Source of the DNA: Gammaproteobacteria bacterium
Lineage (GTDB): Bacteria; Pseudomonadota; Gammaproteobacteria; UBA4575
Direction of reading: 5' to 3'
Assembly: GCA_965220895.1 (NCBI GenBank)
Contig: OZ244850.1
Coordinates: forward strand, 596,861 to 660,860
Length of the DNA: 64,000 nucleotides
Shown one piece after another: positions 34,905-63,557 of this stretch (positions within the stretch are counted from its first letter, which is position 1; each line of letters begins with the position of its first letter). Below the pieces are notes generated by a model. It saw nothing but the letters and a program-made list of their open reading frames with translations. It had not been told where the DNA came from and did no database searches. The position numbers and the translations under genes were made by a program.

Positions 34905-34912
34905 GACAGATA

Positions 34913-39586: not shown

Positions 39587-39593
39587 TCCTGCA

Positions 39594-42401: not shown

Positions 42402-42461
42402 ACCGAATCCGCCCGGATGCGCCCGCGCATCAGGTAGCATGGCATATCGAATGTTATGTAA

Positions 42462-43830: not shown

Positions 43831-45756
43831 ATGGAAGAAAAGCTCACTTTTCGACGCTATGAGGATGGCGACCATGTCACGACGCAATGGAGCAAGGACG
43901 TTGTGCAAAATGGGTTGTCCGAGATCTGCCCGACCTACGTTCACCGAACCCCCCCGTGCCAGGCAAGCTGCCCCTCCGGCCACGACATTCGCGGCTGGCT
44001 TTCCATTGTCAGGGGTATAGACAAACCGGTAGGCGACATGACCTGGCAGGAGCATGCCTTTCGCCGCATGACCATGTCCAATCCATTCCCGTCCGTGATG
44101 GGGCGCGTGTGCCCTGCCCCGTGTGAGGACGGCTGCAACCGCAACGAAGTCGAAGAAGCCGTAGGCATCAATGCCGTGGAGCAGTACGTAGGGGACTGGG
44201 CCCTGGACCAGAACCTGACCTATTCGGTACCCGAGCACGACAGCGGCAAGAAGGTTGCGATTGTAGGTGGTGGATGCGCGGGCCTGACTGCGGCCTATTT
44301 CCTACGCCAGAAAGGCCATGCCTGCACAGTTTTTGATGAATATGACCAGCTCGGTGGCATGATGGTATTCGGCATCCCGGGATACCGTACACCGCGTTCC
44401 GTGCTGGAAGGCGAGATCAATCGCATCATCGACATGGGCGTGGAAGTAAAACTGAACACCCGTGTTGGCACGGATGTCTCGGTCGAGGAACTGGAACGTG
44501 ACTACGATGCCGTGTTCTGGGGTATCGGTGCCGTTTCCGGAAAGAAACTGCCGATCCCGGGTGGTGATGCACCGAATGTCGTGGACGGCATGTCCTACCT
44601 GCGCGCATTCAACGAGGATCGCCTGAAATACATCAGCGGCCGAATTCTTGTGATCGGTGCAGGAGATACGGCGATGGACGTGCTGGCGGTAGCCAGGCGC
44701 ATCGGCAACATCAACAGTGTGACCGTGAAAGACCGCCCGGAAAGTGTGATCCTGGGGCACACCGTGCATGATGTGGCAAGTGTGGCCAAGCGTACCGGGG
44801 CGGATGTATGGGTCGTCTACCGGCGTCCGATCTCAGAAGCACCTGCTACCAAGCATGAACTGGACGCGGTGATTCGCGAAGGTGTGGAAATCCATGACGG
44901 GCTGTCCCCTGTTGAGGTGATCCTGGACGAAGACGGCCGGGCCAAGGCGCTGCGAGTGGTTCCCGTGGAACTGGTTGACGGCAAGCTGGAACCCAAGGAA
45001 GGCGAGGAATTTGACATTGAATGTACACTGATCGTCAGCGCGACCGGCCAGACCGGAGACTATACGGGCATCGAGGAATTCGACAACGGGTGGGGCCTGA
45101 TGAATGCAGACAAGGTCTACCAGGTGGAAGGCAAGCCCGGGCATTTTGTCGCCGGCGATGCAGTCAACCCGCACCTGCTGACCACAGCCATCGGCCAGGC
45201 CTCGATTGCCGCAGAAGGCCTGCATCACTACTTGATGGATCAGGAAATCCCTTCACGCCCCAAGATCGACACCCATCATTTCAAGCTTCTGGAAGAGCTG
45301 CGCGTGCGTGAACTTGAGCCTGCGGCTTACGAAATTCACGAAGCCTGGGGTACGGACACGGCAGAATTCGCGATCCACAACTACGAGGACCGTTCAGCCA
45401 CCGAGATCGCGACCCACGACCAGTTGCACATGGCCTATTTCGAGCACGAGCCCATGAATCGCCGTGATGAGGCCAACATCACAGCGGACAAGGTGCTGAA
45501 CAATTTCCAGGAAAGATTTTCCGCCCTAGAAGAACAAAAAACGATCGATGAAGCAGCCCGCTGCATGAGTTGCGGCATGTGCTTCGAGTGTGACAACTGC
45601 GTAGTTTATTGTCCGGAAGACGCCATTTTCCGGGTCAAGAAAGATCAGCGTGCGATGGGCCGTTACGTCGACACCGATTACGACAAGTGCGTGGGCTGTC
45701 ACATCTGTGCCGATGTCTGCCCGAGCGGCTACATCAAGATGGGATTGCACTACTAG
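43831..45756 (+). CDS. dsrL: DsrL, GltD-like NAD(P)H:acceptor oxidoreductase with C-terminal ferredoxin domain
   Basis: N-terminal Cys clusters, FAD/NAD Rossmann motifs (VAIVGGGCAGL, ILVIGAGDTAMD), C-terminal 2x[4Fe-4S] domain (CMSCGMCFECDNC...CVGCHICADVCP). 641 aa. Confidence 0.85.
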   Translation: MEEKLTFRRYEDGDHVTTQWSKDVVQNGLSEICPTYVHRTPPCQASCPSGHDIRGWLSIVRGIDKPVGDMTWQEHAFRRMTMSNPFPSVMGRVCPAPCEDGCNRNEVEEAVGINAVEQYVGDWALDQNLTYSVPEHDSGKKVAIVGGGCAGLTAAYFLRQKGHACTVFDEYDQLGGMMVFGIPGYRTPRSVLEGEINRIIDMGVEVKLNTRVGTDVSVEELERDYDAVFWGIGAVSGKKLPIPGGDAPNVVDGMSYLRAFNEDRLKYISGRILVIGAGDTAMDVLAVARRIGNINSVTVKDRPESVILGHTVHDVASVAKRTGADVWVVYRRPISEAPATKHELDAVIREGVEIHDGLSPVEVILDEDGRAKALRVVPVELVDGKLEPKEGEEFDIECTLIVSATGQTGDYTGIEEFDNGWGLMNADKVYQVEGKPGHFVAGDAVNPHLLTTAIGQASIAAEGLHHYLMDQEIPSRPKIDTHHFKLLEELRVRELEPAAYEIHEAWGTDTAEFAIHNYEDRSATEIATHDQLHMAYFEHEPMNRRDEANITADKVLNNFQERFSALEEQKTIDEAARCMSCGMCFECDNCVVYCPEDAIFRVKKDQRAMGRYVDTDYDKCVGCHICADVCPSGYIKMGLHY

Positions 45757-45817: not shown

Positions 45818-46156
45818 TCAGGCCACGCTTCCGAACCCTTTGTCCACTGCACCGGTGGGTACATGCAGGCCTGCTATCCTGCAACCCTGGGCTACGGGCC
45901 CACCCGGAAACAAGTCGTACAGGTACTTCATTCCGCCTTTGTAGTGGAACTTCTCTTCCAACGCATCATGCAGTTCACGCATGTTGATCATGTTGATGTC
46001 GTGTCTTGAGTAGTACCCCTGCAATGCATGCAGCAGTTCAAAATGGTCATCCGTCAAGGTGATCCCTTCCTCGACCGCAACTTTCTTGGCATCTTCATCG
46101 GACCAGTCGTCTGACATGAAAAACCGTTCGTAGTTATCCGCTTTCTGGACTGTCAT
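45818..46156 (-). CDS. DsrC-family paralog retaining only the penultimate cysteine
   Basis: C-terminus YLYDLFPGGPVAQGCRIAGLHVPTGAVDKGFGSVA. CysB is kept, the terminal CysA is replaced, and the tail is extended. Confidence 0.8.
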   Translation of the reverse strand: MTVQKADNYERFFMSDDWSDEDAKKVAVEEGITLTDDHFELLHALQGYYSRHDINMINMRELHDALEEKFHYKGGMKYLYDLFPGGPVAQGCRIAGLHVPTGAVDKGFGSVA

Positions 46157-47729: not shown

Positions 47730-47755
47730 GCTGGTTCCCATGGAGGGGAACCAGC
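47730..47755 (-). terminator. hairpin at the cas2 stop (GCTGGTTCCC/GGGAACCAGC), possible terminator/insulator between the cas operon and the array
   Basis: 10-bp perfect stem with a 6-nt loop overlapping the cas2 stop codon. The downstream U-tract is weak. Confidence 0.3.
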
Positions 47756-48090
47756 TAAAACAAGTAAAATTGGTTGGGTTCTTGGTTGGTTTTTCTCCTT
47801 TTTTGAGCATAATATCGCCTCATATTTGAGAACTGCTTATCAGTAATACACAGAACATCAACCTTGCCGCCCGGTGGTAACAAAGGCACGATTCTGTGAC
47901 TTATCGCGTTCGCCTTCTCGCCTGAGGAGCAGTATTTTAGATACACAGAAAACTGTGACATCTCGAATCCGAGGTCAAGAAGGCTGTTTCGGAACTTGGC
48001 TGCCTGTTTGCGTTCCTTCTTGGTAACCACCGGTAAATCGAACATCACGAATAGCCACATGATGCGGTATGGACTAAGGCCATCACTCAT
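47755..48090 (-). CDS. cas2: CRISPR-associated endoribonuclease Cas2
   Basis: About 100 aa, Cas2 fold pattern (RIMWLFVMFDLPV...). 4-nt overlap with cas1. Confidence 0.85.
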   Translation of the reverse strand: MSDGLSPYRIMWLFVMFDLPVVTKKERKQAAKFRNSLLDLGFEMSQFSVYLKYCSSGEKANAISHRIVPLLPPGGKVDVLCITDKQFSNMRRYYAQKRRKTNQEPNQFYLF

Positions 48091-48992
48091 GGCAGTGAAT
48101 CCAAGGGTGCAGGCAAAGGAGGCAGTACGTCAGCCATCACCTCTCCTTGGCAGTACTGGGAGAAAGCGCGACACATCCTGACTGCAACAAGCGACAGAGG
48201 AGAAAAACCTTCGGCCATCGGCAGTGGGAGTGCGGGTAAAGATGCTAGTCGCAACTTGCCCTCAGCGTTGAGCTCCTCGGAATAAGCTTTCCTCGACTGC
48301 CATACAACAAGATCAGCTATGGGACGAAATGGCTCAAGGAGGTCATCGACCAGATTCAAGGGGTTTTGCGGATTCTTGTGGTGTACACTGAAACTTGGAT
48401 GCAACCCAGCACCGGTAACGCCACGCGCTACACAGGCCCGTAACACGGTATAGGCGTAGTTCAGGGCAGCATTCAATCCCGAAGCCGTGCGGTCACGCCG
48501 GAAGTCTTTACCGAAAAGACGTTGCCAATAGGCACGGGCCGCCTGCGCCTCAATGTTGTCCGGATCCCCCGACCTTACTTTGCGGATCATGCGCAGAAGA
48601 TCCCTATTGGCCTCCCCGGCCCGACTCAGCACCTCTGCCTGATTGTCGATTTTCGTTCGAACCAATCGCTGCCAGACACGCTTTCGGCGAGGCTGAGACA
48701 GTTCGGTTTGCGCCCTCATCACGCTGAATTGTCTTACAGCACCCTGCACCGGCAAAGTCCAAGTGCTTGGCAGATAGTTTTTTCCGCACACCACTAACGG
48801 GATGTTTCGCTGCGCCAACTGATCCAGTAATTCGCTGGAAATGGCGCAACCAGGAACAGAAATCAGCACCACACCTATGTCGTCCAGCGGCACTTGACCC
48901 ATTTGTTCCCCACGCTGGTGAACTTGCAGGAAACCCCTTGACTTTTTCAGCCAATATCCCGGATCAGTAATCTCGACAACCTGGCCCCCCAT
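48087..48992 (-). CDS. cas1: CRISPR-associated integrase Cas1 (type II)
   Basis: 301 aa with type II Cas1 pattern (VPLDDIGVVLI...LLDQLAQRNIPLVV...). Directly downstream of cas9. Confidence 0.9.
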   Translation of the reverse strand: MGGQVVEITDPGYWLKKSRGFLQVHQRGEQMGQVPLDDIGVVLISVPGCAISSELLDQLAQRNIPLVVCGKNYLPSTWTLPVQGAVRQFSVMRAQTELSQPRRKRVWQRLVRTKIDNQAEVLSRAGEANRDLLRMIRKVRSGDPDNIEAQAARAYWQRLFGKDFRRDRTASGLNAALNYAYTVLRACVARGVTGAGLHPSFSVHHKNPQNPLNLVDDLLEPFRPIADLVVWQSRKAYSEELNAEGKLRLASLPALPLPMAEGFSPLSLVAVRMCRAFSQYCQGEVMADVLPPLPAPLDSLP

Positions 48993-49004
48993 ACGGCATC
49001 ACTG

Positions 49005-52000
49005 TCATGCAGTTCGACGAGGAGAACGGCGGTGCTCATGACTCACCTGTCCCGTGGGGCTTATATGCACTTTCTTGGCATTTCGTTTCTTGAGCGGATT
49101 GGAAGCAACGCACAAGTACTTAAAGGGATCTTCCTTGTTTCTTTCTCTGCTATCCACATTCGCCTCATGAAGCTCCGCAAATGACATTTGGCCGTTTTGA
49201 CTGACTTTTTGCAATCGATACAACTTTTTTTCACCGTCATTTTCAATTTCCACACAATCGTTGATTTGCAACCGCATCACCAGCTTCGCTGCAGGGTGGG
49301 GCCTGGCTGTCTGGCCAGGTTGGAAGTCATGCTGGTTGGCTTCAAACCGGGAAATCACCACGCCTTCCCACCTGCCCGCTTTCTTATGCACTGACGGGAA
49401 CGCATATATCTCAATACCCCAGTTGCTGTCGCCCTTGTAGGCCTTATAGGCGCTTCCTTCTGCATCTAGAATAGGAATAACCGACAGGGTTTCAGTCTGT
49501 CGCAAACTGCGGATTCCCTTTTGGCGCGCCAGGTCCTCTATTGCCTTCGCACCCGCCTCCGCTGTGTCGAATGCACACCTGAACTCCTCCCTCAGGCGGG
49601 CATCCCTGATTCGTTCAATGTTCTTCCGCTTCGTGAAGAATGAAATCGGTTTGCGGGTGACAACTTTGTACAAGTTCCGCTTTTCCTTCTCCCCGACAAG
49701 CCCATAGGCTGTGTCGTTATGCAGTTGTCCGTCTGTGGTTATCCCCCGCTGTAGTGTCTTGTGCCGTACCTTGTGCGAAACGACAATGTTCCGGACGGTA
49801 TCCACGACATCAGCCCGGAACCCTTCCCAAGGATCAATAGCACTTTTCCCGCCATTGACACGCGGGAACAGCCTGCCCATGGGCTGACTGCCAATTTGCT
49901 CGATTTCCTCAAGCTTCCGTGCCTCAGTCGCCACCTTTTGCAGCATGCTTCGGCTTGTCATGCCGATCACGATCGCATCCACGGCGTGATGACGATGGTC
50001 GTCGCGGTTTTTTCTCCCAGCGCTCTCCCCGCCATCCAGCAAAACACTGTTCAGTCCCCAGTGCCAACGCAGCAGGCTGGTCAGACGGCCGGTCAGGACA
50101 TCAATCTTGTCGATAGGACAAATTCTTTCGAGGTATTCGCGGGCAAGCCGACCAATGTAGCGAGTATCGTTGAGATGGCGGCTGGTGAAATCGGCACCTT
50201 CGCCTTGCTGCCAGATCTTCATTGCATCCTTCTGAAACCGCCACAGTTTGTAATCGGGGAGCTGCTCAGCGCGCGCAGCAATCTCGCCCCAGTCATAGCC
50301 ATTGGGGCTGTCTCCGAAGGCCTCATAGGGAGTCCGGTTGCCCTTGTCGCGGTTTGCCTTGCGCGTGCAAATCACCTTGTTTGCGCGGCTGTCATCCAAC
50401 GACCGACTAAATGGGATTAGGTGTTCAACTTGGGTGCGCTCACTGAAAAGGTCGGTGATTCCGATCTTGACGCCGGAGAAGGGGCAGCAACGTCCATTGG
50501 CGTCTTTGCTCAACTCTTTCCACAGAGACAGGCGCAAACGATTATCGGCGTTGAGTTGCTGACCAAGTTCCAGAAGCTTCTCGTTAAATCCCTGGTTTCT
50601 GTCCTGATTTTCCTTCTGTGCCCTTTCGATCTCCCGGCGCTTTAATTCGCCCGCCGGTAACTCCCGGCCCAATTCAATGGCTATGGAGAACGGTCGCCCG
50701 TACCGTTCAATCAATTCATTGACCACAAGGCGAATCTGGTTCAACGCGATATGCACCGTGGGGTTAGTTATACCGCCCCACCGGGTCTTTTCGTCGTCTT
50801 CAGCTCTTCCGGTCCCGGGAATGATGTGCCGCCCATCGCGAAATGCTTCTCCATAGTAGGGAAGCTTGTCCAGCAATTGGTATTTTCCGTCATCCCCTTT
50901 TTTGCGAAACGGATCCACGAATCCATTAACTTCCAGAGCCACGGACGCGGCTGCGGCGCTTTGCAATGGCAGGGAAAATTCCCCAGTATCCGGATCCACA
51001 ATTCCATCTCGCATCTTCGCCAACATGAGTTGCGCTGCCTTGCTGGAGATTTGTGCACTATCGTCCTTTAGTTGCGCATTGAGGCAATTGTTCGCAACGT
51101 AATCGGAGAGTTCGAAGTGTTCCCGAATGTACGTGCGGAGATCCGCATCATCCTGCGCGCCGTCCGGTGGCGGCAGATGCCCGGCGCCAGCAAGCCGTTT
51201 GCGATCGCGTTCCTGTTGATCGGGTGTGCCATTCAGTAGAACGTCGATAAACTCATCCTGCTTCCCCAGCGGCCAAGCGTGCCAGTCTTCTCCGATGCAG
51301 TCTTCATGCTGCATGAGGTTGCTGGTCAGATTGCCATTGAAGCCCTTGCGCTTCTGCGTCTCGAAATTAAATCTGAAGTCGCCTTCCGCATAGTTGAGCT
51401 TCTTCAAGACCCCCTTCATCTTGCCAAAAGTGACCTGACCGCTCTTTGTGACCACCCTCTCTAGAAGCCGCACTATCTCGTCCCTGGCGTCAGGATAGTC
51501 CCTTACCCGTTTGTTCTGGTAGCCGTCCCACCATTCCAAGCTATTGACTTCCTGAAAGATGCGATAGCACTGAAAACTTGGCATGGCCCGGAAAGTTCGA
51601 TCTTCACTCGGCAGATACGTGCACTTCCCCCGCTTCTGAGGTTTCAGGGGGCGCTGGTGGAAAATCGCCTGATGTACACGCTGCCGAGCGTCTTCAGTCA
51701 TCAACTTTGGATGATGTAGCGACTGGGCTTCCCAAATCTTGTTGAACTCGTCTTCGTATAGTTCGCGTGTTGGGTACACCTCGTACAGTTTTCCGTCAGC
51801 ACCCGCGCCCGGTCGAGCTCGCGTCGGAATACGTTTACGGTGACGCCGGTACAAAAATGAGCCATAGGTCAGATCCTCTCGTTCGGCCAGATCCCGTAAA
51901 GCCCGGTTCCGAGCTTCCGCCTCCGCCCTGCGAACCTGCTTTTTTTCTTCTCTCGACAGCTTCTTGTACTCTTCTCGCGCTAGTTCCGGATCAAGCAAAC

Positions 52001-52472
52001 CCATCTGTTGCAACAGCAATCGCGCCGAACTCGAAACCTTTCCACCGGTCACCTCTTCACTTCGGTCCTTCCGGTTGCTCTTGAAGCCTCGGCGCTGATT
52101 GATATGGAACAATGCACGACCGACTTCACATGGCTTCAGCGGTTGAGTCAAGGCCTGCGCTCGCAAGGCCAGCGGGTTCAAGGATTGCAACGCCTTGCGC
52201 TCTTTCTTTGATTCCGGGAACAGCCCTGCCTGGGTCAACTCATGCAACAAGAACTTCTTGCGCTGCTTGAAGCGGTCACGACGCCGACGCGCCGACCGCT
52301 TTTCCCGCCGGGTCGCCGCGAGCGTGGCTTTGCTCTTGTTGTCCCTTCCTTCGGCGAATATGCGCGACCCTGCGGCTGTGATGGCGCAGGGACTCCCGTT
52401 ATCGTCCAGTTCAAGGACACTCCAGCCAAGCGAATTTGTCCCCACATCAAGACCAAAGCGGTATCTCGACAT
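49005..52472 (-). CDS. cas9: Cas9 (type II-C, 1155 aa)
   Basis: RuvC-I GLDVGTNSLGW at the N-terminus, arginine-rich bridge helix, HNH motif (VEHLIPFSRS...NKVICTRKAN), RuvC-II/III. No csn2 or cas4, so subtype II-C. Confidence 0.9.
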   Translation of the reverse strand: MSRYRFGLDVGTNSLGWSVLELDDNGSPCAITAAGSRIFAEGRDNKSKATLAATRREKRSARRRRDRFKQRKKFLLHELTQAGLFPESKKERKALQSLNPLALRAQALTQPLKPCEVGRALFHINQRRGFKSNRKDRSEEVTGGKVSSSARLLLQQMGLLDPELAREEYKKLSREEKKQVRRAEAEARNRALRDLAEREDLTYGSFLYRRHRKRIPTRARPGAGADGKLYEVYPTRELYEDEFNKIWEAQSLHHPKLMTEDARQRVHQAIFHQRPLKPQKRGKCTYLPSEDRTFRAMPSFQCYRIFQEVNSLEWWDGYQNKRVRDYPDARDEIVRLLERVVTKSGQVTFGKMKGVLKKLNYAEGDFRFNFETQKRKGFNGNLTSNLMQHEDCIGEDWHAWPLGKQDEFIDVLLNGTPDQQERDRKRLAGAGHLPPPDGAQDDADLRTYIREHFELSDYVANNCLNAQLKDDSAQISSKAAQLMLAKMRDGIVDPDTGEFSLPLQSAAAASVALEVNGFVDPFRKKGDDGKYQLLDKLPYYGEAFRDGRHIIPGTGRAEDDEKTRWGGITNPTVHIALNQIRLVVNELIERYGRPFSIAIELGRELPAGELKRREIERAQKENQDRNQGFNEKLLELGQQLNADNRLRLSLWKELSKDANGRCCPFSGVKIGITDLFSERTQVEHLIPFSRSLDDSRANKVICTRKANRDKGNRTPYEAFGDSPNGYDWGEIAARAEQLPDYKLWRFQKDAMKIWQQGEGADFTSRHLNDTRYIGRLAREYLERICPIDKIDVLTGRLTSLLRWHWGLNSVLLDGGESAGRKNRDDHRHHAVDAIVIGMTSRSMLQKVATEARKLEEIEQIGSQPMGRLFPRVNGGKSAIDPWEGFRADVVDTVRNIVVSHKVRHKTLQRGITTDGQLHNDTAYGLVGEKEKRNLYKVVTRKPISFFTKRKNIERIRDARLREEFRCAFDTAEAGAKAIEDLARQKGIRSLRQTETLSVIPILDAEGSAYKAYKGDSNWGIEIYAFPSVHKKAGRWEGVVISRFEANQHDFQPGQTARPHPAAKLVMRLQINDCVEIENDGEKKLYRLQKVSQNGQMSFAELHEANVDSRERNKEDPFKYLCVASNPLKKRNAKKVHISPTGQVSHEHRRSPRRTA

Positions 52473-53256: not shown

Positions 53257-53851
53257 TGTACTTCACTCCCTGCTCCAGCAGGGTGCCGCGATGCTCATGT
53301 GTCCAGAATGGCGGGAACAGGATCAGTTTTCCGGCTTCGGGCCTGACCTTGACCCCCTGAAACAGAAATTCCGTTTCTCCTCCCGGTCCTGCGACATCAT
53401 TCAGATACCAGATCGCCACCAGTTGACGGTGGCTGAAATCATGGCTGCCGCCATCAACGTGCCAGTGATAGTACTCGCCCGCCCGGGTCCTCTGGATCCC
53501 GTACCCCATATCCTTGAAAGGACCCTTGAAAAACGGATAGCGTTCACGAAATTCCCGCACGGCCAGACCCAGTGACCGGAAAAAGGTCCGGTCCGTATCC
53601 TTCCAGTGTGCCTTGCCGCTGACGACCAGGTCAGTGGATTTCTTGATGCTGGCGTCCCTGTCGGCAAGCTGACCAATGCGCCCTTCGTACTGTTCTTCCT
53701 CGGCCCGCTCAAAGTGCTCGATAACCTCGGCGCAGAAACCCGCAGGAAGGGAGCCGGCCTGTTCGAAAATAAAGCTGCCGGGCTTGATTTCGCGGATGGT
53801 TTGAAGGGGCTGTTCAGCCCTGCGGTCTGCGCGCCCCCGGGTCATGGTCAA
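53228..53851 (-). CDS. prolyl 4-hydroxylase-like 2OG-Fe(II) oxygenase
   Basis: HxD...H motif (HVDGGSH ... HEHRG) in a P4Hc-like fold. 207 aa. Start overlaps the upstream gene stop (ATGA). Confidence 0.8.
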   Translation of the reverse strand: MTMTRGRADRRAEQPLQTIREIKPGSFIFEQAGSLPAGFCAEVIEHFERAEEEQYEGRIGQLADRDASIKKSTDLVVSGKAHWKDTDRTFFRSLGLAVREFRERYPFFKGPFKDMGYGIQRTRAGEYYHWHVDGGSHDFSHRQLVAIWYLNDVAGPGGETEFLFQGVKVRPEAGKLILFPPFWTHEHRGTLLEQGVKYIATTWVVFA

Positions 53852-54897
53852 AGAGGGTTTTCTACGACAATCTTTTCCAGCCTGGACAGGCTCGCATCAT
53901 CCTGCTTCTCATAGCATGCAAGCATATCACCTGCCACTGACGTCCAGTGACGTACGCCTTTTGCAACCAGCTTTTTCAAAGGTTTCAGATTGTCCGTGTC
54001 CACCCATGCCTGGTAGGCTTTCTGAAAGCCCGGGAACAACTCCTTGCGCATGGCTGTGAGGTTGGCCGCATAAAAATGCAACGAGGCGGGATTGTAGTTT
54101 TCGATCAGTCCCGGCAAGGTCGACAGGCAGTCGGCCAGCAGGTCCTTGACGGCCCTGGCCATGATTTCTGCCCGGGAGCGTGGCAGGTTCATGACCATTT
54201 CGCGCCACCCATCCCCCAGCTCCCTGGAAGCAACAAATTCACCGATCTCATGCAGGGTGACGGCTTCGAGCTCGTTTTCCGTCATTCGGTCCAGCGCGTA
54301 CGAAACCCCCTTGTCAAACTCATAGAACGACAATGCCTTGGCCATGGCGTTTTCATTCTTGTGCCACTGCCATTCCTGGTATTTTTCCCAGAGCAGCCAA
54401 CTCAGCGATTCCCTGCGAATGAAAACGTTCTTGCCCTGGGTCATTGCCGGCGGTGCGGTCAGGTCCCTCGCGCATTCATCCGCGGCAACGTACATCGTGA
54501 AATCGTTGTAGACCTCTCTGGATTCAAGTCGTGCCAGAAAGAAGTTCGGGGTTGCGCGAAGACCGATACCGCCGCTGTACACATAGTGCTTGGGCACCAG
54601 TACCGCGTTGATGTTATCGGTGTCAAACGGGTCAAATTCCTCGCCATCGATCCGCAACGGCAAAAAACTCTCCTCTTCCAGCGTCTCCCACAGGTGTTCG
54701 CGATCCTGCACCCAGTCTCCCACCTCCTCCTTGGGCAGGGCTTCATCAAACGTGTAGCCGTTTTCCCAGCGAAAGTACTCGCGCATCTTCAGGAGATAGA
54801 CGCACAGCGTATAGTTGGCGGCGTTGCGCGCATCCGAGATGTCGCAGTTCTTCTGCACGGTCGTGCAAAGAAGTTCGGTTTGGGTGGTCATGGGCAC
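53848..54897 (-). CDS. hypothetical protein (349 aa), first gene of the unknown-P4H-GNAT operon
   Basis: Long ORF with coding-like composition. Translationally coupled to the P4H-like gene. No recognisable motif. Confidence 0.6.
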   Translation of the reverse strand: MPMTTQTELLCTTVQKNCDISDARNAANYTLCVYLLKMREYFRWENGYTFDEALPKEEVGDWVQDREHLWETLEEESFLPLRIDGEEFDPFDTDNINAVLVPKHYVYSGGIGLRATPNFFLARLESREVYNDFTMYVAADECARDLTAPPAMTQGKNVFIRRESLSWLLWEKYQEWQWHKNENAMAKALSFYEFDKGVSYALDRMTENELEAVTLHEIGEFVASRELGDGWREMVMNLPRSRAEIMARAVKDLLADCLSTLPGLIENYNPASLHFYAANLTAMRKELFPGFQKAYQAWVDTDNLKPLKKLVAKGVRHWTSVAGDMLACYEKQDDASLSRLEKIVVENPL

Positions 54898-54955: not shown

Positions 54956-55579
54956 TTGAAAACCGTGGCTAGACTGAAAACCAAATGGAACTTGCAGGAG
55001 CGACAACGCAGTCCTGAAGATATAGCAAGTGTGATCGCCTTCAATCTTTGGGTGCTGGCGGCAGATTCATGCCTGTTTCTTGAAAACGAGGGGTTCGAGA
55101 CCCGATCACAGTCGCAACGGCTCGACGTGATCGCAGAATTCACGGCATTCGGCGCCCATGTTGCAGACCGGATGGTGTTCGATACCATGACGGCTTCCGA
55201 ACGGGAATTGTTCATCAACTCGCTGGGACAGCACCTTGCAAACACCATGCAGACCAACCGCGAGGAGATCATCGGTGCCGGAAACTACCGCAAGGATTTT
55301 ATCGATCTTCTGAATCGCAGGATGGATGAGTTCTGCCAGTGCAGTTATTCGGAAGAGCACGGGCCCGGGTTTCCCATGCGACGACTGGCTGCAAATCACG
55401 TGCAGGCGGTCATGGGGGAAAAGGACAACAAGTGGATTCCCGACTACGTGATCGATTCCGAAATCCCCAAACTGTTGCTGGGCCTGAAAAGAGTCTTCAA
55501 GGGCCAGAAAGCCTCGCTGGACGAAACCGATTTCTCTGCACCCCCGATTCCTGAATCCGGCGTCTGGGGCGAGGAATGA
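54956..55579 (+). CDS. hypothetical protein (207 aa)
   Basis: Divergent from the 349-aa ORF. No recognisable motif. Confidence 0.5.
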   Translation: MKTVARLKTKWNLQERQRSPEDIASVIAFNLWVLAADSCLFLENEGFETRSQSQRLDVIAEFTAFGAHVADRMVFDTMTASERELFINSLGQHLANTMQTNREEIIGAGNYRKDFIDLLNRRMDEFCQCSYSEEHGPGFPMRRLAANHVQAVMGEKDNKWIPDYVIDSEIPKLLLGLKRVFKGQKASLDETDFSAPPIPESGVWGEE

Positions 55580-55898: not shown

Positions 55899-57053
55899 CT
55901 ACGATTTGTTTTTCTGGAAGTGCGCGAATGCCTTGCCTGAACCCAGCGCGGCGCGGATTCTCTCGGCGGCATCTTCGAGAGTTTTCTCAAGGCCGAGATG
56001 CACGAGCATAATGGCCCCGGAGTACACCAGGCCGTCGCGCCCGGGACCTTCTTCTCCCTGCAATGCAGACAACCCTACCTGCGCCGCTTCATGGGCAAGC
56101 TGGTCGACATCAAACTTTGCCGCCGTGCTGTCGCCTGCAACTTTGGAAGGGTCCAGTTCCGGCAACGGTACTGCCCGGACATCCTGGTCGATACCGGCTT
56201 GCTGTGGTGCGATTTCCACTTCGCTCAGCGGCCCGCCGTTTCGGTATTCAAAATACTTCGAGCTTTGCTTGAGAGAGGGTGTCACTCCTCCCTCAACCCC
56301 GCGCACAAACACCGAAGACTCAAAACCGGACAACCTTGCCAGATGTTCATACACGGGTGGATAGGGCTTGTGCACATAGCCGGTCACCAGATGAGTGCCG
56401 ACCGTTCCCCGTACGGGTCCGATCAAAACCTCCACCGTGGTGATGACTGGCCTTTTCACGATCTGGGTGCGCAGGGGAATCAGGCTGTGCAACGCCGGGC
56501 AGACCTGGCGTTGATCGATATAGGACCACCCCGCTTCCTGGCGATTGATCTGCTGCACGGCTTGCTGGACGGTCAAGTCGACATTGATGCCGGCGGCACG
56601 CAGAACCTTCCTGTGTGTGGCTCCATACTTCGGTCCCACGGCTTCCGCGCCGTGCGAGACGCTCCGCACCCCGCAAGCGGCCAGCACCGCGGGCAGGAAA
56701 GGGGAAACCGGCAGGCCACGTGTATAACCGTCGTAGGGGTCTGCGATATCCACGACGTGTTCCACGTCCGCCGTGGCTATGTTCGAGACATCGATGATCG
56801 CCTGCAGGCAACCACCGTTTTCATCCAGTGTCTCTCGTTTCATTCGCAGGGCAATCAGGAATATTCCGGCCTGAACCGGGTCCGCCGAGCCATCCAGGAT
56901 GTGGCTCATGGCGTCCCGCGCTTCCCCGAAGGAGATGTCCTTGCTGTATTCAGGCCCGGTAGCCACCCGCTGGATGTAGGAACGCATGGCCTGCTTCGCA
57001 TCCGGGTTTACGGGTTGTTCCTTTCTTGACATCTTTTCGTGAAGCCATCTCAA
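55899..57053 (-). CDS. TrpD2/YbiB-like protein (anthranilate phosphoribosyltransferase fold, glycosyl transferase family 3)
   Basis: GT3 N-terminal helical domain followed by an alpha/beta domain. 384 aa. Lacks obvious TrpD catalytic residues. Confidence 0.7.
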   Translation of the reverse strand: MRWLHEKMSRKEQPVNPDAKQAMRSYIQRVATGPEYSKDISFGEARDAMSHILDGSADPVQAGIFLIALRMKRETLDENGGCLQAIIDVSNIATADVEHVVDIADPYDGYTRGLPVSPFLPAVLAACGVRSVSHGAEAVGPKYGATHRKVLRAAGINVDLTVQQAVQQINRQEAGWSYIDQRQVCPALHSLIPLRTQIVKRPVITTVEVLIGPVRGTVGTHLVTGYVHKPYPPVYEHLARLSGFESSVFVRGVEGGVTPSLKQSSKYFEYRNGGPLSEVEIAPQQAGIDQDVRAVPLPELDPSKVAGDSTAAKFDVDQLAHEAAQVGLSALQGEEGPGRDGLVYSGAIMLVHLGLEKTLEDAAERIRAALGSGKAFAHFQKNKS

Positions 57054-57262: not shown

Positions 57263-57724
57263 ATGACTGTCCCGCTTGGAGATGACATGCCCGACGACGA
57301 TATGGACTTAGCCAGTGGCATCATGGCATTCGAGGCAAAACATTTTTCCCGGGCACTGCAGATTCTTTCTCAGCTTGCGGAAAAAGGCGATGCCGATGCC
57401 CAGTACCGATGTGCCATCATGTACCAGAATGGTTTGGGCACCGTGGCCAACCCGGATTCTGCCTACCAGTGGATGAAATCCGCGGCCGAGCAGGACCATG
57501 CATTGGCCCAGCATGGGCTCGGGTTCATGTACATGGAGGGTGACTGCACCGAGCAAAATGGTGAAGAGGCGGTGAGATGGTTCACCAAGGCGGCAGACCA
57601 GGGACTCCAGGGGTCACAAACGACGCTTGCCCTGATGTATGAAGAAGGCCGCGGTATTGAACAGGACCTAGAAAAAGCCAAACAGTGGTACGGCAGGGCC
57701 GGATTTTCTGCCGATGAAATTTAA
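57263..57724 (+). CDS. Sel1-repeat (TPR-like) protein
   Basis: Three Sel1 repeats (AQYRCAIMYQNGLGTVANPDSAYQWMKSAAEQDHALAQHGLGFMYMEG...). Confidence 0.75.
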   Translation: MTVPLGDDMPDDDMDLASGIMAFEAKHFSRALQILSQLAEKGDADAQYRCAIMYQNGLGTVANPDSAYQWMKSAAEQDHALAQHGLGFMYMEGDCTEQNGEEAVRWFTKAADQGLQGSQTTLALMYEEGRGIEQDLEKAKQWYGRAGFSADEI

Positions 57725-57741
57725 GCGACTGACAGGCCCCG

Positions 57742-58791
57742 ATGCGACCCGCTCATCTTATCGTCGTACTTGAAAAGGAGTTTCTAGGCGCCGCCTTCGG
57801 ACACCACACCCCGGTGATGCTGTGGGGACCCCCCGGTGTCGGCAAGTCGCAGATGGTCGGGCAGGTGGCGGAAAAAAACGGTGTGGAAGTCATCGACATA
57901 CGCCTGTCGCAAATGGAACCCAGCGACCTGCGGGGCATCCCCTTCCGGGACGGGAACACGGTGGAGTGGGCCATCCCCGCGATGCTGCCGGATGTCAGCC
58001 GGCACGGCGGGAATGGAATTTTGTTCCTCGACGAGATCACCTCGGCAGCCCCGAGTGTATCCGCAGCCGCCTATCAGCTGATTCTGGACCGGCGCCTGGG
58101 GCAATACCGCGTGCCCGAAGGCTGGGCGATATTTGCGGCCGGGAACCGGCAGGGGGACCGTGGAGTGACCTATTCGATGCCGGCCCCGCTGGCCAACCGG
58201 TTCTCCCATTTCGAGGTGGATGTCAATCTGGACGACTGGGTCGCCTGGGCCTACGCCAATCATATCGACGAGAAAATCATTGCCTTCCTGCGGTTTCGAC
58301 CCGACCTGCTGTTCGATTTCGATCCCGCACACAATCCGGTTGCCTTCCCTTCGCCACGCTCCTGGGAATTTGCCCACCGGGCCCTGCAAAAATTCCCGGA
58401 CCGGCCCGACCTGCTTACCGGTGCACTGCAGGCCTGTGTCGGACCTGCTGCGGGAGTGGAGCTCAATGCCTTTATCGCGAACCTGGATCAAATGCCTGAC
58501 CTGGAAGCGATCGTACGCGGGGACGACATTGCCGCGCCGCAGGAAATCGATTTGCAGTATGCGGTCGCCTCTGCGCTGGTCGGCCATGCCATCCGCGCCA
58601 GACAAACGGAGGATGCGGGCCACGTACACGGCAACATCCTGAACTACGCGGGCCGGTTCCCGCAGCGTGAAATGGGCGTGATGATGGTTTCGGACATGCA
58701 CCGGGCCATCGGCGAGGACCTTTTCAGCCTGCCCGAGTTCACCACGTGGGCAGACAAGATCGCGGATATCATGATCTATGATCACGCCTGA
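57742..58791 (+). CDS. MoxR-class AAA+ ATPase (AAA_5 type)
   Basis: Walker A GPPGVGKS, Walker B ILFLDEIT, sensor/arginine-finger region. 349 aa. Confidence 0.8.
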   Translation: MRPAHLIVVLEKEFLGAAFGHHTPVMLWGPPGVGKSQMVGQVAEKNGVEVIDIRLSQMEPSDLRGIPFRDGNTVEWAIPAMLPDVSRHGGNGILFLDEITSAAPSVSAAAYQLILDRRLGQYRVPEGWAIFAAGNRQGDRGVTYSMPAPLANRFSHFEVDVNLDDWVAWAYANHIDEKIIAFLRFRPDLLFDFDPAHNPVAFPSPRSWEFAHRALQKFPDRPDLLTGALQACVGPAAGVELNAFIANLDQMPDLEAIVRGDDIAAPQEIDLQYAVASALVGHAIRARQTEDAGHVHGNILNYAGRFPQREMGVMMVSDMHRAIGEDLFSLPEFTTWADKIADIMIYDHA

Positions 58792-58812
58792 GGCGTGCCG
58801 TGACACATGTAA

Positions 58813-60033
58813 GTGAGCAAGGGCAAAAACCAAAACAAGCTTGCAACCGCAAGAACCCGCCTGATTCTGGACAAACCCTTCCTCGGCGCACTGGTATTGC
58901 GCCTGCCCCTGGTCGCAGCGGATCCCGGCTGGTGCAAAACGGCCACCACCGATGCACGCAAGCTGTACTTCAATCCGGAATACATCGGGTCACTGGACAT
59001 CCAGGAGACGCAATTTGTGCTTGCGAAACAGGCGCTGCACTGTGCCTTGTCCCATTTTGCCCGAAGGCACCACCGCATCCGGTCGCGCTGGGAGCTGGCA
59101 TGTGATTATGCGGTCAACCCCCTGCTGATTCACGATGGCCTGAAACCGCCCCCGGGCACCCCGGTGGAGGAAAATTTCGAGGGCATGACCGCCGAGGAAA
59201 TCTACCACTGCATCGATGAGTTCGATGATGAAAACAGCGAACTTGAGAAGCCATCCGAAAGCCTGGGGGATGCAGGAAGCCACGCGCCGCAGCCGGACGG
59301 GCAAAGCCCGCCACCCCAAGAGCCCAGCGGGCAGGAACATGATCCAGATCCTGAGGAGCCCCCCGAACTTGCACGACAGCCTGCAGAGCTGACTGCACAG
59401 CAGCAGGAAGAGCTGTCCATCCAGTGGCAGCAGCGCCTGGCAGGCGCTGCCCAGCAAGCCATGCAGGCTGGAAAGCTTGGCGGCTCGATGGCGCGCATGG
59501 TCGACTACATGCTGCAGCCGAAGCTCCCCTGGCGGATGCTGCTGGCCAAGTACATGACGGCCAGTGCACGGGATGATTACAGCTATTCCAGACCTTCCTC
59601 GCGCCGCGGAGATCCGGCCATTTTCCCCAGCCTGCGCAGCACCCAGATCAACGTGGCGGTCGGCCTGGATATCAGCGGCTCCGTCGATGACAAGGACATG
59701 AACGAATTCCTGTCCGAAGTCGATGCCATCAAGGGCAACATGCGTGCACGGATTACCCTGCTTCCCTGCGATGCCGAACTGGCGGAAGGCGTGCCCTGGA
59801 TTTTCGAGCCCTGGGAAGATGTTGAAATGCCGGAGGTCCTGAAAGGCGGAGGAGGCACAAGCTTTTGCCCCGTGTTTGACTGGCTGGACGTGCAGGACCA
59901 GCCACCGGACCTGCTGGTCTACTTTACGGACGGCCAGGGAACCTTTCCCGGAACTCCCCCCTGCTATCCTGTGATCTGGCTCGTCAAGGGCAAACAGACG
60001 GTCCCCTGGGGGCAACGCGTGCAGCTGAACTGA
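58813..60033 (+). CDS. VWA-domain protein with N-terminal DUF2201 (putative metallopeptidase-like) domain
   Basis: MIDAS-like DxSGS (LDISGSVDD) in the C-terminal VWA domain. N-terminal DUF2201_N-like region. Acidic/proline-rich linker. Confidence 0.8.
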   Translation: MSKGKNQNKLATARTRLILDKPFLGALVLRLPLVAADPGWCKTATTDARKLYFNPEYIGSLDIQETQFVLAKQALHCALSHFARRHHRIRSRWELACDYAVNPLLIHDGLKPPPGTPVEENFEGMTAEEIYHCIDEFDDENSELEKPSESLGDAGSHAPQPDGQSPPPQEPSGQEHDPDPEEPPELARQPAELTAQQQEELSIQWQQRLAGAAQQAMQAGKLGGSMARMVDYMLQPKLPWRMLLAKYMTASARDDYSYSRPSSRRGDPAIFPSLRSTQINVAVGLDISGSVDDKDMNEFLSEVDAIKGNMRARITLLPCDAELAEGVPWIFEPWEDVEMPEVLKGGGGTSFCPVFDWLDVQDQPPDLLVYFTDGQGTFPGTPPCYPVIWLVKGKQTVPWGQRVQLN

Positions 60034-60034
60034 T

Positions 60035-61144
60035 ATGCAACTCTCTCACGAAGACCAGCTGCGATTGAACGTTCTCGTTGCCCAGTCCCTGCAAGCGATT
60101 CGGATCGATGAATCCCGCATGCGGGTGCATGCGCTATCGGAAAAAGGGGAAGCCAGCATCGATTTGAATCCCACCTGCAAGGATGAAAAATATATCCGTC
60201 TCATCCAGCAGTTCCTGTCGACCCATTACCTGGGTTCGCCCGGTGGCTATCCGGTATTTCTGAGGCGCTGGACCCGTATGGGCCAGGCACGCGATGACAG
60301 CCTGGAGAAACTGCTGCTGATCGGCGAACCGGAAGCGGTCGCCGCGGTGGTCCATGCGTCGGGGCTTACCAACGAGCTGGCGCGACGGGCCTGGTGGACC
60401 TCAACCAATGCTGAAAACGCACGGCGCATGCTTGAGAAAGAAAGCGTCGTAAAGGGCAACATGGGGAAGGAGCTGGCGCATTTCCTCGTTGAGTTCCTGC
60501 CGTTCGAGGAAGAACAAAAGGCCATCATCGACAGTGTTCGTCTGGTCCTGCAGCCCGGCCTGATTGACGATGAGGTACGCCGAGCGATCTGGAAGCGCGG
60601 CAAAAGAAAAAACTCCTACTATGTAGGCTTCCTGCAGCAGACCCCGGATCACCTGCCCATAGATGCAACACCTCACGAGAAATGGGAAACTGTCACAAGA
60701 GCAGTGAAACCAGAACTGGACCGCGGCAACGAGTATGCCGGACTGCTTTGCAGGGCACTGGGTCCCGCAGGCCAGGCTTTTTTACATGTCACCGACGAGG
60801 TACTGCAAAAACCCAATGATCAGGAGGTCGTTGTGGCCCTGCTGAATGCAATCGGGAATTACTTCGAATACGGGAAAACCGGCACCCGGGCCTGCCGCGA
60901 CATGCGGTCCCTGTCGGATCAGATTGGCGTACTATTCAGGGATGATCCGAACCTTGAGAAAATCCTGTCCATTGACCCGGATTTGCAGCCGCGGCTGGAT
61001 GCGATCCTGGGTCTGTCCATGGTAAGCGAGACCCTTGTGGACCCGATATTTGGCATGACCGATGCCATCGGCACGGTGATGAGAAAGAAGATCGAACCGG
61101 TGATCGGGCCCATCACCGGATATATCCGCCTGCTCCAGTCATGA
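60035..61144 (+). CDS. hypothetical protein (369 aa) translationally coupled to the VWA gene
   Basis: ATG 1 nt after the upstream stop. No recognisable motif. Confidence 0.65.
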   Translation: MQLSHEDQLRLNVLVAQSLQAIRIDESRMRVHALSEKGEASIDLNPTCKDEKYIRLIQQFLSTHYLGSPGGYPVFLRRWTRMGQARDDSLEKLLLIGEPEAVAAVVHASGLTNELARRAWWTSTNAENARRMLEKESVVKGNMGKELAHFLVEFLPFEEEQKAIIDSVRLVLQPGLIDDEVRRAIWKRGKRKNSYYVGFLQQTPDHLPIDATPHEKWETVTRAVKPELDRGNEYAGLLCRALGPAGQAFLHVTDEVLQKPNDQEVVVALLNAIGNYFEYGKTGTRACRDMRSLSDQIGVLFRDDPNLEKILSIDPDLQPRLDAILGLSMVSETLVDPIFGMTDAIGTVMRKKIEPVIGPITGYIRLLQS

Positions 61145-61157
61145 CGCACCTGCCTGC

Positions 61158-62591
61158 ATGAATTACCTGCCCGTATTTCTGGATGTCAAGAACAAGCCTT
61201 GCCTAGTGGTTGGCGGCGGACTGATCGCCACACGCAAAATTTCACTGCTGGTCCGGGCACAGGCCAAAATCACCGTCATCGCTCCGGAAGTCACGCCTGA
61301 TATTCACGACCAGGCCCTCGAGGGAGTCCTTGTCTGGCAACAGAAATACTTCTCGGCAGAGGACCTGGACGATTATCAGCTGGTCATGGCGGCCACAGAC
61401 AGCCGGGAAGTGAATGCCGAAATCGCCGCAGACTGCAAAAAACGCAACATCTGGGTCAATGCGGCCGACGATGTTCACAGCTGCAACTTCATCTTGCCCT
61501 CCATCATTGATCGCTCCCCCGTACAGATTGCGGTTTCCACAGGCGGCGCATCGCCGGTGCTGGCCAGGACACTGCGGGCCAAACTCGAAAACTGTACGCC
61601 GGCAGCCTACGGGAGGCTGGCAAAACTGATCGAGGAAAACCGGCTGCGGGTGAAAGAAAAGTTTTCCAGCATCGAGCAAAAGAGAAAATTCTGGGAAAAA
61701 ATCATCCAGGGTCCCGTGGCTGAACTTGTATTTTCGGGCCAGCATGAGGCTGCGCAAAAATTGTTGCAGGACGCCATCGAGCGCGAAGACCATCGGGAAC
61801 TGCCACAGGGAGAAGTGTATCTGGTCGGGGCGGGCCCCGGCGACCCCGACCTGCTGACGTTTCGTGCCTTGCGGCTGATGCAGCAGGCCGATGTCGTGGT
61901 GTATGACCGCCTGGTCTCACAGGAAATCATGGACTTGATAAGAAAGGATGCGGAACTCATCTATGCAGGCAAAGAGCGCGCGCAGCATGCATTGCCCCAG
62001 GAAAGCATTAACCAGTTGCTGGTTCGCCTGGCAAAAGAAGGAAAACGTGTCCTGCGCCTCAAGGGCGGCGACCCGTTCATCTTTGGTCGCGGTGGAGAGG
62101 AAATCAGCACATTGATCGATGAGGAGATACCCTTCCAGGTGGTTCCCGGGATCACTGCTGCCGCGGGGTGTGCCGCCTATGCCGGCATCCCGCTTACCCA
62201 TCGCCACCACTCGCAAGCGGTAATCTTTGCGACCGGCCACCTGAGTGACGGAACCGTAAACCTGAACTGGGACATGCTGGCCCATGAAAACCAGACCCTG
62301 GTCTTCTACATGGGACTGCAAGGCCTGGACATCATCTGCACCAACCTCAAAAAACACGGGCTGGCGTCCGCCACGCCCGCAGCCCTGATCATGCAAGGCA
62401 CCACGGCTCATCAGAAAGTGATCATGGGAAACCTGGACAACCTGCCGGCGCTGGTAGCCGAACACGATGTCGAACCTCCCACGCTGGTCATCGTCGGCGA
62501 TGTCGTACAACTGCACGACACCCTGCGCTGGTTCAATCCCGAAGAAGATGTCACGGCTTCCGCGGTCCGGTTCTTTGGAGCAAGAACCTGA
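61158..62591 (+). CDS. cysG: siroheme synthase (multifunctional CysG: precorrin-2 dehydrogenase/ferrochelatase + uroporphyrinogen-III methyltransferase)
   Basis: N-terminal NAD-binding VVGGGLIATRK and C-terminal SUMT domain (VYLVGAGPGDPDLLT, GGDPFIFGRGGEE). 477 aa. Confidence 0.9.
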   Translation: MNYLPVFLDVKNKPCLVVGGGLIATRKISLLVRAQAKITVIAPEVTPDIHDQALEGVLVWQQKYFSAEDLDDYQLVMAATDSREVNAEIAADCKKRNIWVNAADDVHSCNFILPSIIDRSPVQIAVSTGGASPVLARTLRAKLENCTPAAYGRLAKLIEENRLRVKEKFSSIEQKRKFWEKIIQGPVAELVFSGQHEAAQKLLQDAIEREDHRELPQGEVYLVGAGPGDPDLLTFRALRLMQQADVVVYDRLVSQEIMDLIRKDAELIYAGKERAQHALPQESINQLLVRLAKEGKRVLRLKGGDPFIFGRGGEEISTLIDEEIPFQVVPGITAAAGCAAYAGIPLTHRHHSQAVIFATGHLSDGTVNLNWDMLAHENQTLVFYMGLQGLDIICTNLKKHGLASATPAALIMQGTTAHQKVIMGNLDNLPALVAEHDVEPPTLVIVGDVVQLHDTLRWFNPEEDVTASAVRFFGART

Positions 62592-62705: not shown

Positions 62706-63557
62706 ATGGATACCCTCAATTTCTTCGGCCATCCGTTGACAGGAACCCCCTTCGGCCTGGCCCTTGACTTGTGCCTCCTGCTAGCCGTGTCCGTCTGGCT
62801 GCTGTCGGTCATCACACGTGAATACTCCTGGGTGGACCGGATCTGGCCGATCTGTCCCGTGATCTACTGCCTGCTGGTCGCGAGTGCCAGCGATTTCAGT
62901 TCAGCACGTGTGAACCTCATGGCCGTGCTTGTTTTGCTCTGGGGGTCGCGACTGACCTTCAACTATGCCCGCAAGGGAGGGTTCAGCAAAGGCGGTGAGG
63001 ATTATCGATGGGTCGTCATCCAGCAACAGCTGGGCCCGGTCGGATTCCAGCTGCTGAACATCGCCTTCATTGCACCCGTACAAATGCTGCTGGTCTGGCT
63101 GTTTACCTCACCCGTTCACCAGGCCTGGCTCTGGCAACAGGCTCCCCTGAATTGGCTGGATGCAGTTGCCGCCGTCCTGTTTTTGGTACTGTGGGTCATT
63201 GAGGCCGTTGCCGATGAGCAGATGTGGCGGTTTCAGCAAGACAAGAAGCGACGCGGCGCCGAAGGCCAGGACATCGAGACACCTTTCATCACGACCGGCC
63301 TGTTTAACTACTGCAGGCATCCCAACTATTTTTGCGAGATCGCCATGTGGTGGGTGTTTTACCTGTTCGCGGTCGCAGCCTCCGGACAGTGGCTGCACTG
63401 GACGGGGCTCGGGTTCATCTTGCTCACCCTGCTGTTTATCCCGTCGGCACGGCTGACGGAATCGATCTCGTTGTCCAAGTATCCCGCTTACCGTGACTAC
63501 CAAGCCTCTACGCCTGCACTCCTGCCCCTGCCAAGATTTGGTGCACGCAGTCGGTAG
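62706..63557 (+). CDS. DUF1295 / steroid 5-alpha-reductase-like membrane protein
   Basis: Multi-TM protein with the NYCRHPNYFCEI motif typical of the DUF1295/ICMT-like family. Confidence 0.75.
   Translation: MDTLNFFGHPLTGTPFGLALDLCLLLAVSVWLLSVITREYSWVDRIWPICPVIYCLLVASASDFSSARVNLMAVLVLLWGSRLTFNYARKGGFSKGGEDYRWVVIQQQLGPVGFQLLNIAFIAPVQMLLVWLFTSPVHQAWLWQQAPLNWLDAVAAVLFLVLWVIEAVADEQMWRFQQDKKRRGAEGQDIETPFITTGLFNYCRHPNYFCEIAMWWVFYLFAVAASGQWLHWTGLGFILLTLLFIPSARLTESISLSKYPAYRDYQASTPALLPLPRFGARSR

Follow-up and report, generated by a model that had tools for sequence, protein, structure and literature searches.

In the window, by which we mean the whole 64,000-nt stretch of Gammaproteobacteria bacterium DNA analysed here (assembly GCA_965220895.1, contig OZ244850.1, positions 596,861 to 660,860), five consecutive genes encode a Sel1-repeat protein, a MoxR-type AAA+ ATPase, a protein carrying a VWA (von Willebrand factor A) domain, a homologue of DsrS and the siroheme synthase CysG. 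We propose, with a probability of a little under one half (about 0.45), that these genes form a conserved accessory module of Dsr-type sulfur-oxidising Gammaproteobacteria in which a MoxR/VWA remodelling chaperone acts together with DsrS and the Sel1 protein on the reverse dissimilatory sulfite reductase (Dsr) system. The five-gene arrangement is far beyond chance; dozens of species-level genomes share it, with DsrS identities of 51-95%. Sulfur oxidation based on DsrAB is a major route in the marine and sedimentary sulfur cycle, and we know of no account of how the siroamide/Fe-S active site of DsrAB is assembled. With its connection to dsrS and cysG, the conserved MoxR/VWA pair is a concrete and testable candidate for this assembly.

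Organization of the five-gene cluster

According to the list of open reading frames (ORFs) of the window, the five genes are tightly packed on the plus strand and span positions 57263-62591:

57263-57724, plus strand, Sel1-repeat protein gene (three PF08238 repeats, 99.6 bits)
57742-58791, plus strand, MoxR-type ATPase gene (AAA_5 35.1 bits, AAA 33.1 bits)
58813-60033, plus strand, gene of the DUF2201_N and VWA protein (PF13203 148 bits, PF09967 77 bits)
60035-61144, plus strand, gene of the DsrS homologue, 369 aa (from the NCBI names of its relatives)
61158-62591, plus strand, cysG (NF007922 630.5 bits for a cutoff of 400, four Pfam domains)

The ORFs of this cluster ending in cysG lie exactly where a preliminary description of the same DNA had placed them. 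From the Sel1 gene to cysG, the intergenic gaps are 17 nt, 21 nt (between the ATPase and VWA genes), 1 nt (between the VWA stop codon and dsrS) and 13 nt (between the dsrS stop codon and the start of cysG); the last two had been given correctly, while the first two, given as 18 and 22, were each off by one. All five products are predicted to be soluble, with neither a signal peptide nor a membrane segment. No terminator-like site was found on the plus strand between 57.0 and 62.06 kb, those of this strand being located only within or after cysG, and a promoter scan gave no plus-strand promoter-like site; the promoter and terminator scans are uninformative. An Rfam scan upstream of and between the genes of the cluster yielded nothing meaningful, its two matches being both far under the gathering scores. 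We infer that cysG is co-expressed with the dsrS module.

The Sel1 protein has three tandem PF08238 repeats, and is cytoplasmic and acidic (isoelectric point 4.3) without any hydrophobic segment; its orthologues are 57-66% identical in the related loci L162-L169. Its true start is probably the ATG at 57287 rather than 57263, because GGAG precedes that ATG and the form starting at 57263 is absent from the protein collection. At the other end of the cluster, CysG is full-length, with PF13241, PF14824, PF10414 and PF00590 (precorrin-2 dehydrogenase/ferrochelatase and SUMT domains), and carries its own ferrochelatase domain. A gene for a DUF1295 membrane protein (steroid-reductase/ICMT-like; 62706-63557, plus strand) starts 114 nt past cysG, with no terminator-like site between the two. 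Since it is kept downstream of cysG only in the closest relatives (L001-L008), its product probably stands outside the module.

The fourth gene encodes a DsrS homologue

The 369-aa product of the fourth gene had been described as an unknown protein. It is a DsrS homologue as judged from relatives named by NCBI, rather than from the founding member, Alvin_1265 of Allochromatium vinosum. A homology search with this protein retrieved thousands of relatives, and those among them that bear an NCBI name, at 46-89% identity, are called 'sulfur reduction protein DsrS' (P0004, 89%; P0098, 57%; P0102, 56%; and, from a second search, P0441, P0454, P0493 and P0497). The second search was seeded with a 42%-identical homologue and aimed at the Chromatiaceae-type dsrS located inside the dsr operon; this type was not reached, and only uncultured relatives with the Sel1-AAA-VWA-DsrS layout were retrieved. 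The 369-aa protein gave no match in Pfam, NCBIfam or PDB sequence searches, and neither Pfam nor NCBIfam holds a DsrS model. Its mass of 41.6 kDa is close to that of A. vinosum DsrS, about 41 kDa.

The AlphaFold2 model of the DsrS homologue (pLDDT 84, pTM 0.78) shows a small three-stranded beta unit at the N-terminus and, after it, an all-helical repeat body of about 20 helices. Comparison of the model with the PDB by Foldseek gave nothing significant, the best E value being 0.06, for helical repeats. In this model DsrS resembles a scaffold rather than an enzyme. Its function is listed as unresolved in the paper on the A. vinosum genome.

The oxidative dsr set (dsrAB, dsrEFH, dsrL, dsrN, dsrR) was found in the same window as dsrS:

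27462-38165, minus strand, dsrABEFHCMK(JO)PNR operon, the putative client system, without dsrS and dsrL
36900-38165, minus strand, dsrA (633 bits)
35759-36832, minus strand, dsrB (547 bits)
27847-29211, minus strand, dsrN, CobB-like
27462-27854, minus strand, dsrR, IscA-like
43831-45756, plus strand, dsrL (Pyr_redox_2, Fer4_20, Fer4 architecture)

The operon also contains dsrEFH, dsrC, dsrM, dsrK and dsrP. It terminates at dsrR, whereas dsrS is encoded on the opposite strand at a distance of 32 kb from dsrR. The window does not show the A. vinosum layout, in which dsrS is the last gene of the operon (dsrABEFHCMKLJOPNRS). Nor is that layout universal, dsrS having been reported as 'located elsewhere' for Thioalkalivibrio and Sulfurifustis/Sulfuricaulis. 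The dsrS gene that is missing from the dsr operon of the window is thus found in the five-gene cluster. The preliminary description had connected the cluster with the Dsr system through dsrN, at a distance of about 30 kb; dsrN is indeed found there, and the connection is stronger than could be seen at that stage, the fourth gene being dsrS itself.

The tail of the A. vinosum operon places dsrS beside the siroheme-amidating dsrN and the IscA-like dsrR. These three genes are all present in the window, where, however, dsrS stands out of the dsr operon and within the Sel1-AAA-VWA-dsrS-cysG unit. In both known layouts dsrS is beside siroheme genes, cysG in the one and dsrN-dsrR in the other. The dsrL gene of the window is displaced as well; it is encoded on the other strand, about 6 kb past dsrA, and forms a pair with a second dsrC-like gene (45818-46156).

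Conservation of the gene linkage

A DsrS scan with one genome per species gave at least 564 relatives, of which the best 80, at 51-95% identity, were examined by tblastn with the window proteins. These 80 loci all belong to uncultured Gammaproteobacteria (with the labels Thiotrichales, Thiohalobacter, Thiogranum, Thiohalophilus and Thioalkalispiraceae). The AAA and VWA genes are immediately upstream of DsrS in 50 of the 65 loci with enough flank, and the spacing between VWA and DsrS is mostly 2-7 nt. A Sel1 gene is present somewhere upstream of DsrS in 58/61 loci, and CysG is encoded at most 1.3 kb downstream in 49/63. The linkage to cysG, whose restriction to this genome had been named as a possible objection, is therefore not unique. 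Furthermore, seven DsrS loci from other lineages, with independent gene calls, were inspected; six read Sel1-AAA_5-DUF2201-DsrS, and one reads Sel1-DsrS followed by a 180-aa protein, a glutaredoxin and CysG.

The flanking genes vary considerably. Upstream of the module are found TrpD-like/DUF6866, HtpG/HslR or radical-SAM genes, and downstream CysG, a 180-aa protein with a glutaredoxin, YbaK-HDOD, GGDEF/EAL or a sulfotransferase. Because the trio of ATPase, VWA protein and DsrS persists while the flanks differ between lineages, the linkage appears to be selected rather than to be inherited synteny. Several related loci adjoin dsr genes, namely dsrA(B) in L036, L037, L079, L107 and L129, dsrL in L001-L012 and L021, and dsrPNR in L152. 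A literature search found no paper describing the Sel1-AAA-VWA-dsrS-cysG arrangement, in agreement with the earlier impression that it is uncharacterised, and none linking dsrS with a MoxR, von Willebrand or cysG context.

In some lineages the space between DsrS and CysG holds genes for a protein of about 180 aa (25 loci) and for a dithiol glutaredoxin (21 loci). In L161, L162, L166, L168 and about 40 other loci, the 180-aa protein and/or a CPYC glutaredoxin occupy this position, and in L161 and L168 genes for EgtB-like (DinB_2 and FGE-sulfatase) and EgtD-like (Methyltransf_33) proteins come next. The window has none of these genes.

A separate metagenome scan, seeded with divergent members of the VWA clade, gave 80 loci. 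The ATPase gene is immediately upstream of the VWA gene in 56 of 58 VWA-anchored loci. The ATPase and the VWA protein thus form an obligate pair, which is not in every case linked in cis to dsrS.

The MoxR-type ATPase and its VWA partner

The ATPase consists of one AAA module and a C-terminal helical region. Its AAA_5 score of 35.1 bits exceeds the cutoff of 22, and a member of its identical cluster is named 'MoxR family ATPase' by NCBI. The Walker A (WGPPGVGKS), Walker B (ILFLDE), sensor-1 (AAGN) and Arg-finger (LANRF) motifs are invariant among 112 orthologues. In the PDB, the midasin AAA ring (62 bits) comes closest, ahead of NorQ (27 bits) and CbbQ (22 bits), and no chelatase chain (BchI, CobS) appears among the PDB matches of this protein. 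The subfamily models AAA_3 (19.3 bits) and bpMoxR (19.9 bits) match weakly, both under their cutoffs of 27. The ATPase is also the most conserved protein of the set, with 73-79% identity where DsrS has about 50%.

The VWA protein (406 aa) is composed of a zincin-like N-domain, a disordered linker rich in acidic residues and proline (around residues 140-190) and a C-terminal VWA domain. In the alignment of orthologues its metal ion-dependent adhesion site (MIDAS) is complete and invariant (DISGS, corresponding to DxSGS; GGGGT; FTDG). Its AlphaFold2 model has a pLDDT of 85, and the C-terminal domain of the model matches the VWA folds of CLCA1 and integrin with a Foldseek probability of 1.0. The protein has no sequence relative in the PDB, and the N-domain was unmatched by sequence or fold. 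The wider DUF2201 family carries the motif HExxHxxxxH. At this place the window protein reads KQALHCALSH, the first His and the catalytic Glu being gone. KQxxH is found in 110 of the 120 closest orthologues, the other 10 keeping HEALH. Since the MIDAS is invariant whereas HExxH was lost in these 110 proteins, the VWA protein fits an adaptor and not a protease.

The DUF2201 family is huge, with 18,379 representative clusters at E <= 1e-3, and within it the window protein falls into a clade of its own, set off by scores of 330-500 bits for the top full-length representatives against at most 254 bits for the remainder. In most of the closest clade members HExxH is lost and DsrS is attached. Essentially no literature deals with DUF2201, and we found no characterised member of the wider AAA_5/DUF2201 family.

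Proposed role of the module

We propose that the MoxR-type ATPase, presumably hexameric, binds its dedicated VWA partner, and that the intact MIDAS of the VWA domain would grip an acidic residue on a client, which would then be remodelled through ATP hydrolysis. The helical-repeat DsrS and the small Sel1 protein may serve as client-specific adaptors or co-chaperones. The likeliest client would be the reverse Dsr system, and the action could be assembly, siro(heme)amide-[4Fe-4S] loading or reactivation of DsrAB, possibly together with DsrC, the siroheme being supplied by cysG within the same transcription unit. The gene content and its tight spacing, the intact motifs, the lost peptidase site and the conserved linkage to dsrS, cysG and dsr loci are observed; what we infer is a physical contact among the four proteins, who their client is and how it is remodelled, the gene neighbourhood being our guide to the client and to cofactor insertion. 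By analogy the chaperone reading is the most economical one, because those MoxR/VWA pairs that have been characterised serve the maturation or activation of specific enzymes, namely MDH, NOR, CO dehydrogenase and Nuo (PMC3893208). A cofactor-related step is favoured since cysG stands with the module in the window and the gene order in A. vinosum is dsrN-dsrR-dsrS.

In a narrower version of this proposal, which is possible although we hold it doubtful, DsrS, the MoxR ATPase, the MIDAS-VWA protein and the Sel1 protein would constitute a dedicated ATP-driven insertase/activase serving reverse DsrAB at its siro(heme)amide-[4Fe-4S] centre. If true, no chaperone system of a siroheme enzyme would have been described before this one, and DsrS would have an explained function. 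If confirmed, a siroheme enzyme would join rubisco, NOR, CO dehydrogenase and MDH as users of MoxR-type activases. The module would also offer a first hold on what the very large AAA_5/DUF2201 family does.

Several observations speak against a chaperone dedicated to the Dsr system. In only 15 of 55 VWA-anchored loci is DsrS adjacent (within 0.9 kb after VWA); seven more have a DUF6866, 207-aa, Sel1 or TrpD-like gene nearby, and the 11 most divergent ones (<53% identity) have none of the module genes. In the VWA loci lacking DsrS, the next genes are unrelated and encode a BepA-like M48 peptidase, adenylate kinase, SoxXA or a diguanylate cyclase. With so few loci adjacent to DsrS, the AAA/VWA pair needs no dsrS in cis, and a broader role is possible. 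Conversely, 15 of the 65 DsrS loci are devoid of AAA-VWA, Sel1 being there directly upstream of DsrS, and the published A. vinosum operon lists no such ATPase and VWA genes; DsrS function thus does not depend on the ATPase in all cases. The sample itself, the best 80 of at least 564 relatives and all from Gammaproteobacteria, is biased towards the clade of the window. As for DsrS, Grimm and colleagues are said to have observed in 2010 that a dsrS mutant oxidised sulfur more slowly, and to have proposed a post-transcriptional control instead of a part in maturation. Finally, dsrS is reported to be non-essential (PMC5944118).

The main competitor, which we consider unlikely, is a general proteostasis or stress chaperone with many or non-Dsr clients, for which the position at dsrS and cysG would reflect co-regulation or a gene order inherited in one clade. 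The 40 of 55 VWA-anchored loci without an adjacent DsrS would agree with it, as would the pairs found beside htpG, hslR, NUDIX or adk genes and the general stress roles of MoxR proteins of other subfamilies (PMC3893208). However, the 2-7 nt spacing of the trio is kept across reshuffled flanks at about 50% DsrS identity, the DUF6866, 207-aa and Sel1 genes accompany the pair in further loci, and the score gap (330-500 versus at most 254 bits) sets the subfamily apart from other DUF2201 proteins. A regulatory module, in which DsrS as a helical-repeat and possibly RNA-binding protein would tune dsr expression post-transcriptionally, the ATPase/VWA pair would set its state and cysG would be a member of the regulon, seems to us distinctly unlikely. 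It would agree with the slower mutant and the control ascribed above to Grimm and colleagues. In A. vinosum dsrS has a promoter of its own (PMC3368242), and the DsrS model is an alpha-solenoid whose weak, non-significant Foldseek matches include Pumilio/Puf repeats. These Puf matches have E values of 0.25 or more and TM-scores of about 0.2 or less, and no nucleic-acid-binding domain was found in DsrS by Pfam, NCBIfam and PDB sequence searches. In addition, characterised MoxR/VWA pairs act on enzyme complexes and not on regulators, and the recurrent neighbours cysG and dithiol glutaredoxin have cofactor and redox functions.

The other explanations are much less plausible. Pfam labels the N-domain a putative metallopeptidase, and the HExxHxxxxH motif of the wider family with the HEALH of 10 close orthologues might suggest a processing protease, whose zincin-like domain would cleave a substrate delivered by the VWA and AAA parts. 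This is very improbable, as the KQALH version prevails in the window and its closest orthologues and the gene is nevertheless strongly conserved; an active peptidase was rejected for the lineage of the window, which has KQxxH in place of HExxH. The chelatase-like analogy of the preliminary description likewise did not hold. An AAA+ and VWA pair adjoining a tetrapyrrole gene recalls an ATP-dependent class I-type chelatase (BchI/BchD- or CobS/CobT-like) that would insert iron into sirohydrochlorin. Yet neither the cluster nor, recurrently, the related loci encode a BchH/CobN-like subunit, the VWA protein has a zincin-like N-domain instead of the AAA-like N-domain of BchD/CobT, the PDB chains closest to the ATPase come from midasin, NorQ and CbbQ, and CysG already includes a ferrochelatase module. 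This reading was rejected because an H/N subunit is lacking, the VWA protein is built differently and none of the solved relatives is a chelatase; we find it hardly credible. To a MoxR-vWA biological-conflict or anti-phage system we give next to no weight. Ternary MoxR/vWA conflict systems do exist, and the ATPase has the weak bpMoxR match mentioned above, but from species to species the cluster keeps its chromosomal setting among metabolic genes, and it encodes no effector domain. A defence system was rejected after PADLOC gave no match for the VWA protein or DsrS and only sub-threshold noise for the AAA protein.

Comparison with known systems

The closest parallels of the Dsr-directed chaperone proposed here are the rubisco activase CbbQ/CbbO and NorQ/NorD, of the CGN subfamily. 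In these, as in the window, a single-module MoxR-type ATPase stands beside a partner with a C-terminal MIDAS VWA domain, and each pair is dedicated to one metabolic enzyme and encoded near it. The sequence similarity of the window ATPase to CbbQ and NorQ is nonetheless weak (22-27 bits), the midasin AAA ring scoring higher, and the 406-aa partner with its zincin-like N-domain differs from the large CbbO and NorD proteins. The window system also adds two conserved partners, Sel1 and DsrS, and its client is putative. A MoxR protein and a VWA protein are likewise combined in CoxD/CoxE/CoxF, for maturation of the Mo-Cu cluster of CO dehydrogenase, and in RavA/ViaA, acting on Nuo and Frd, so as to assist the maturation or modulation of a redox enzyme complex (PMC3893208); CoxDEF is multi-component, as is the window system. 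These systems belong to different MoxR subfamilies without detectable specific similarity, and they are backed by genetics and biochemistry, whereas the window system is a candidate.

The two-gene architecture and the Pfam families of the window pair are shared with other AAA_5 and DUF2201 pairs (COG3864-type 'predicted metal-dependent peptidase'), from which the window pair differs in forming a distinct high-scoring clade, with HExxH mostly lost and DsrS attached. New within the MoxR/VWA theme would be the four components, the protease-dead zincin-VWA adaptor and the putative new client.

Other genes of the window

Three genes upstream of the cluster recur in related loci:

53848-54897, minus strand, DUF6866/Sfum_1244 protein (Pfam/NCBIfam)
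54956-55579, plus strand, 207-aa protein
55899-57053, minus strand, TrpD-like protein with family-3 glycosyltransferase fold (PRK07394-like), divergent from Sel1

The DUF6866, 207-aa and TrpD-like genes are present in 47, 49 and 33 of the 80 DsrS-anchored loci, respectively, and also in L162-L169. They also precede AAA-VWA in several loci without an adjacent DsrS, and possibly belong to the same functional set. The DUF6866, 207-aa and other unknown neighbours gave no informative PDB or Pfam matches.

Next to dsrA, a conserved block at 38013-42401 is also found in L036, L037, L046, L063, L068, L078, L079, L107 and L129. Together with a 111-aa ORF it comprises:

38485-39402, TauD-like dioxygenase
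39399-40283, match to Pfam 'Cas6' PF09559 (205 bits)
about 40.3-40.7 kb, probable extra dsrC-like gene (DsrC tblastn matches, on the strand opposite to a 123-aa ORF)
41142-41810, 2-oxoglutarate-Fe(II) oxygenase

The 'Cas6' label is probably misleading, because the block recurs by DUF6866, Sel1 and DsrS in many loci that are free of CRISPR. Between the conserved 111-aa ORF and dsrL, a TnpB/IS605 OrfB-like gene (42439-43704, plus strand; Cas12f1-like_TNB, OrfB_IS605) was observed, which is absent from related loci. Downstream of dsrR, a pair of genes encodes a GAF histidine kinase and a LuxR response regulator (25129-27187).

A type II CRISPR-Cas locus occupies positions 47755-52472 on the minus strand:

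49005-52472, minus strand, Cas9 (RuvC_III and HNH_4 domains)
48087-48992, minus strand, Cas1
47755-48090, minus strand, Cas2

The CRISPR array is probably located at about 46.2-47.7 kb. The whole locus looks inserted, since it is absent at this position in the closest relatives (L001-L012), where a 212-aa ORF directly succeeds the dsrC-like gene.

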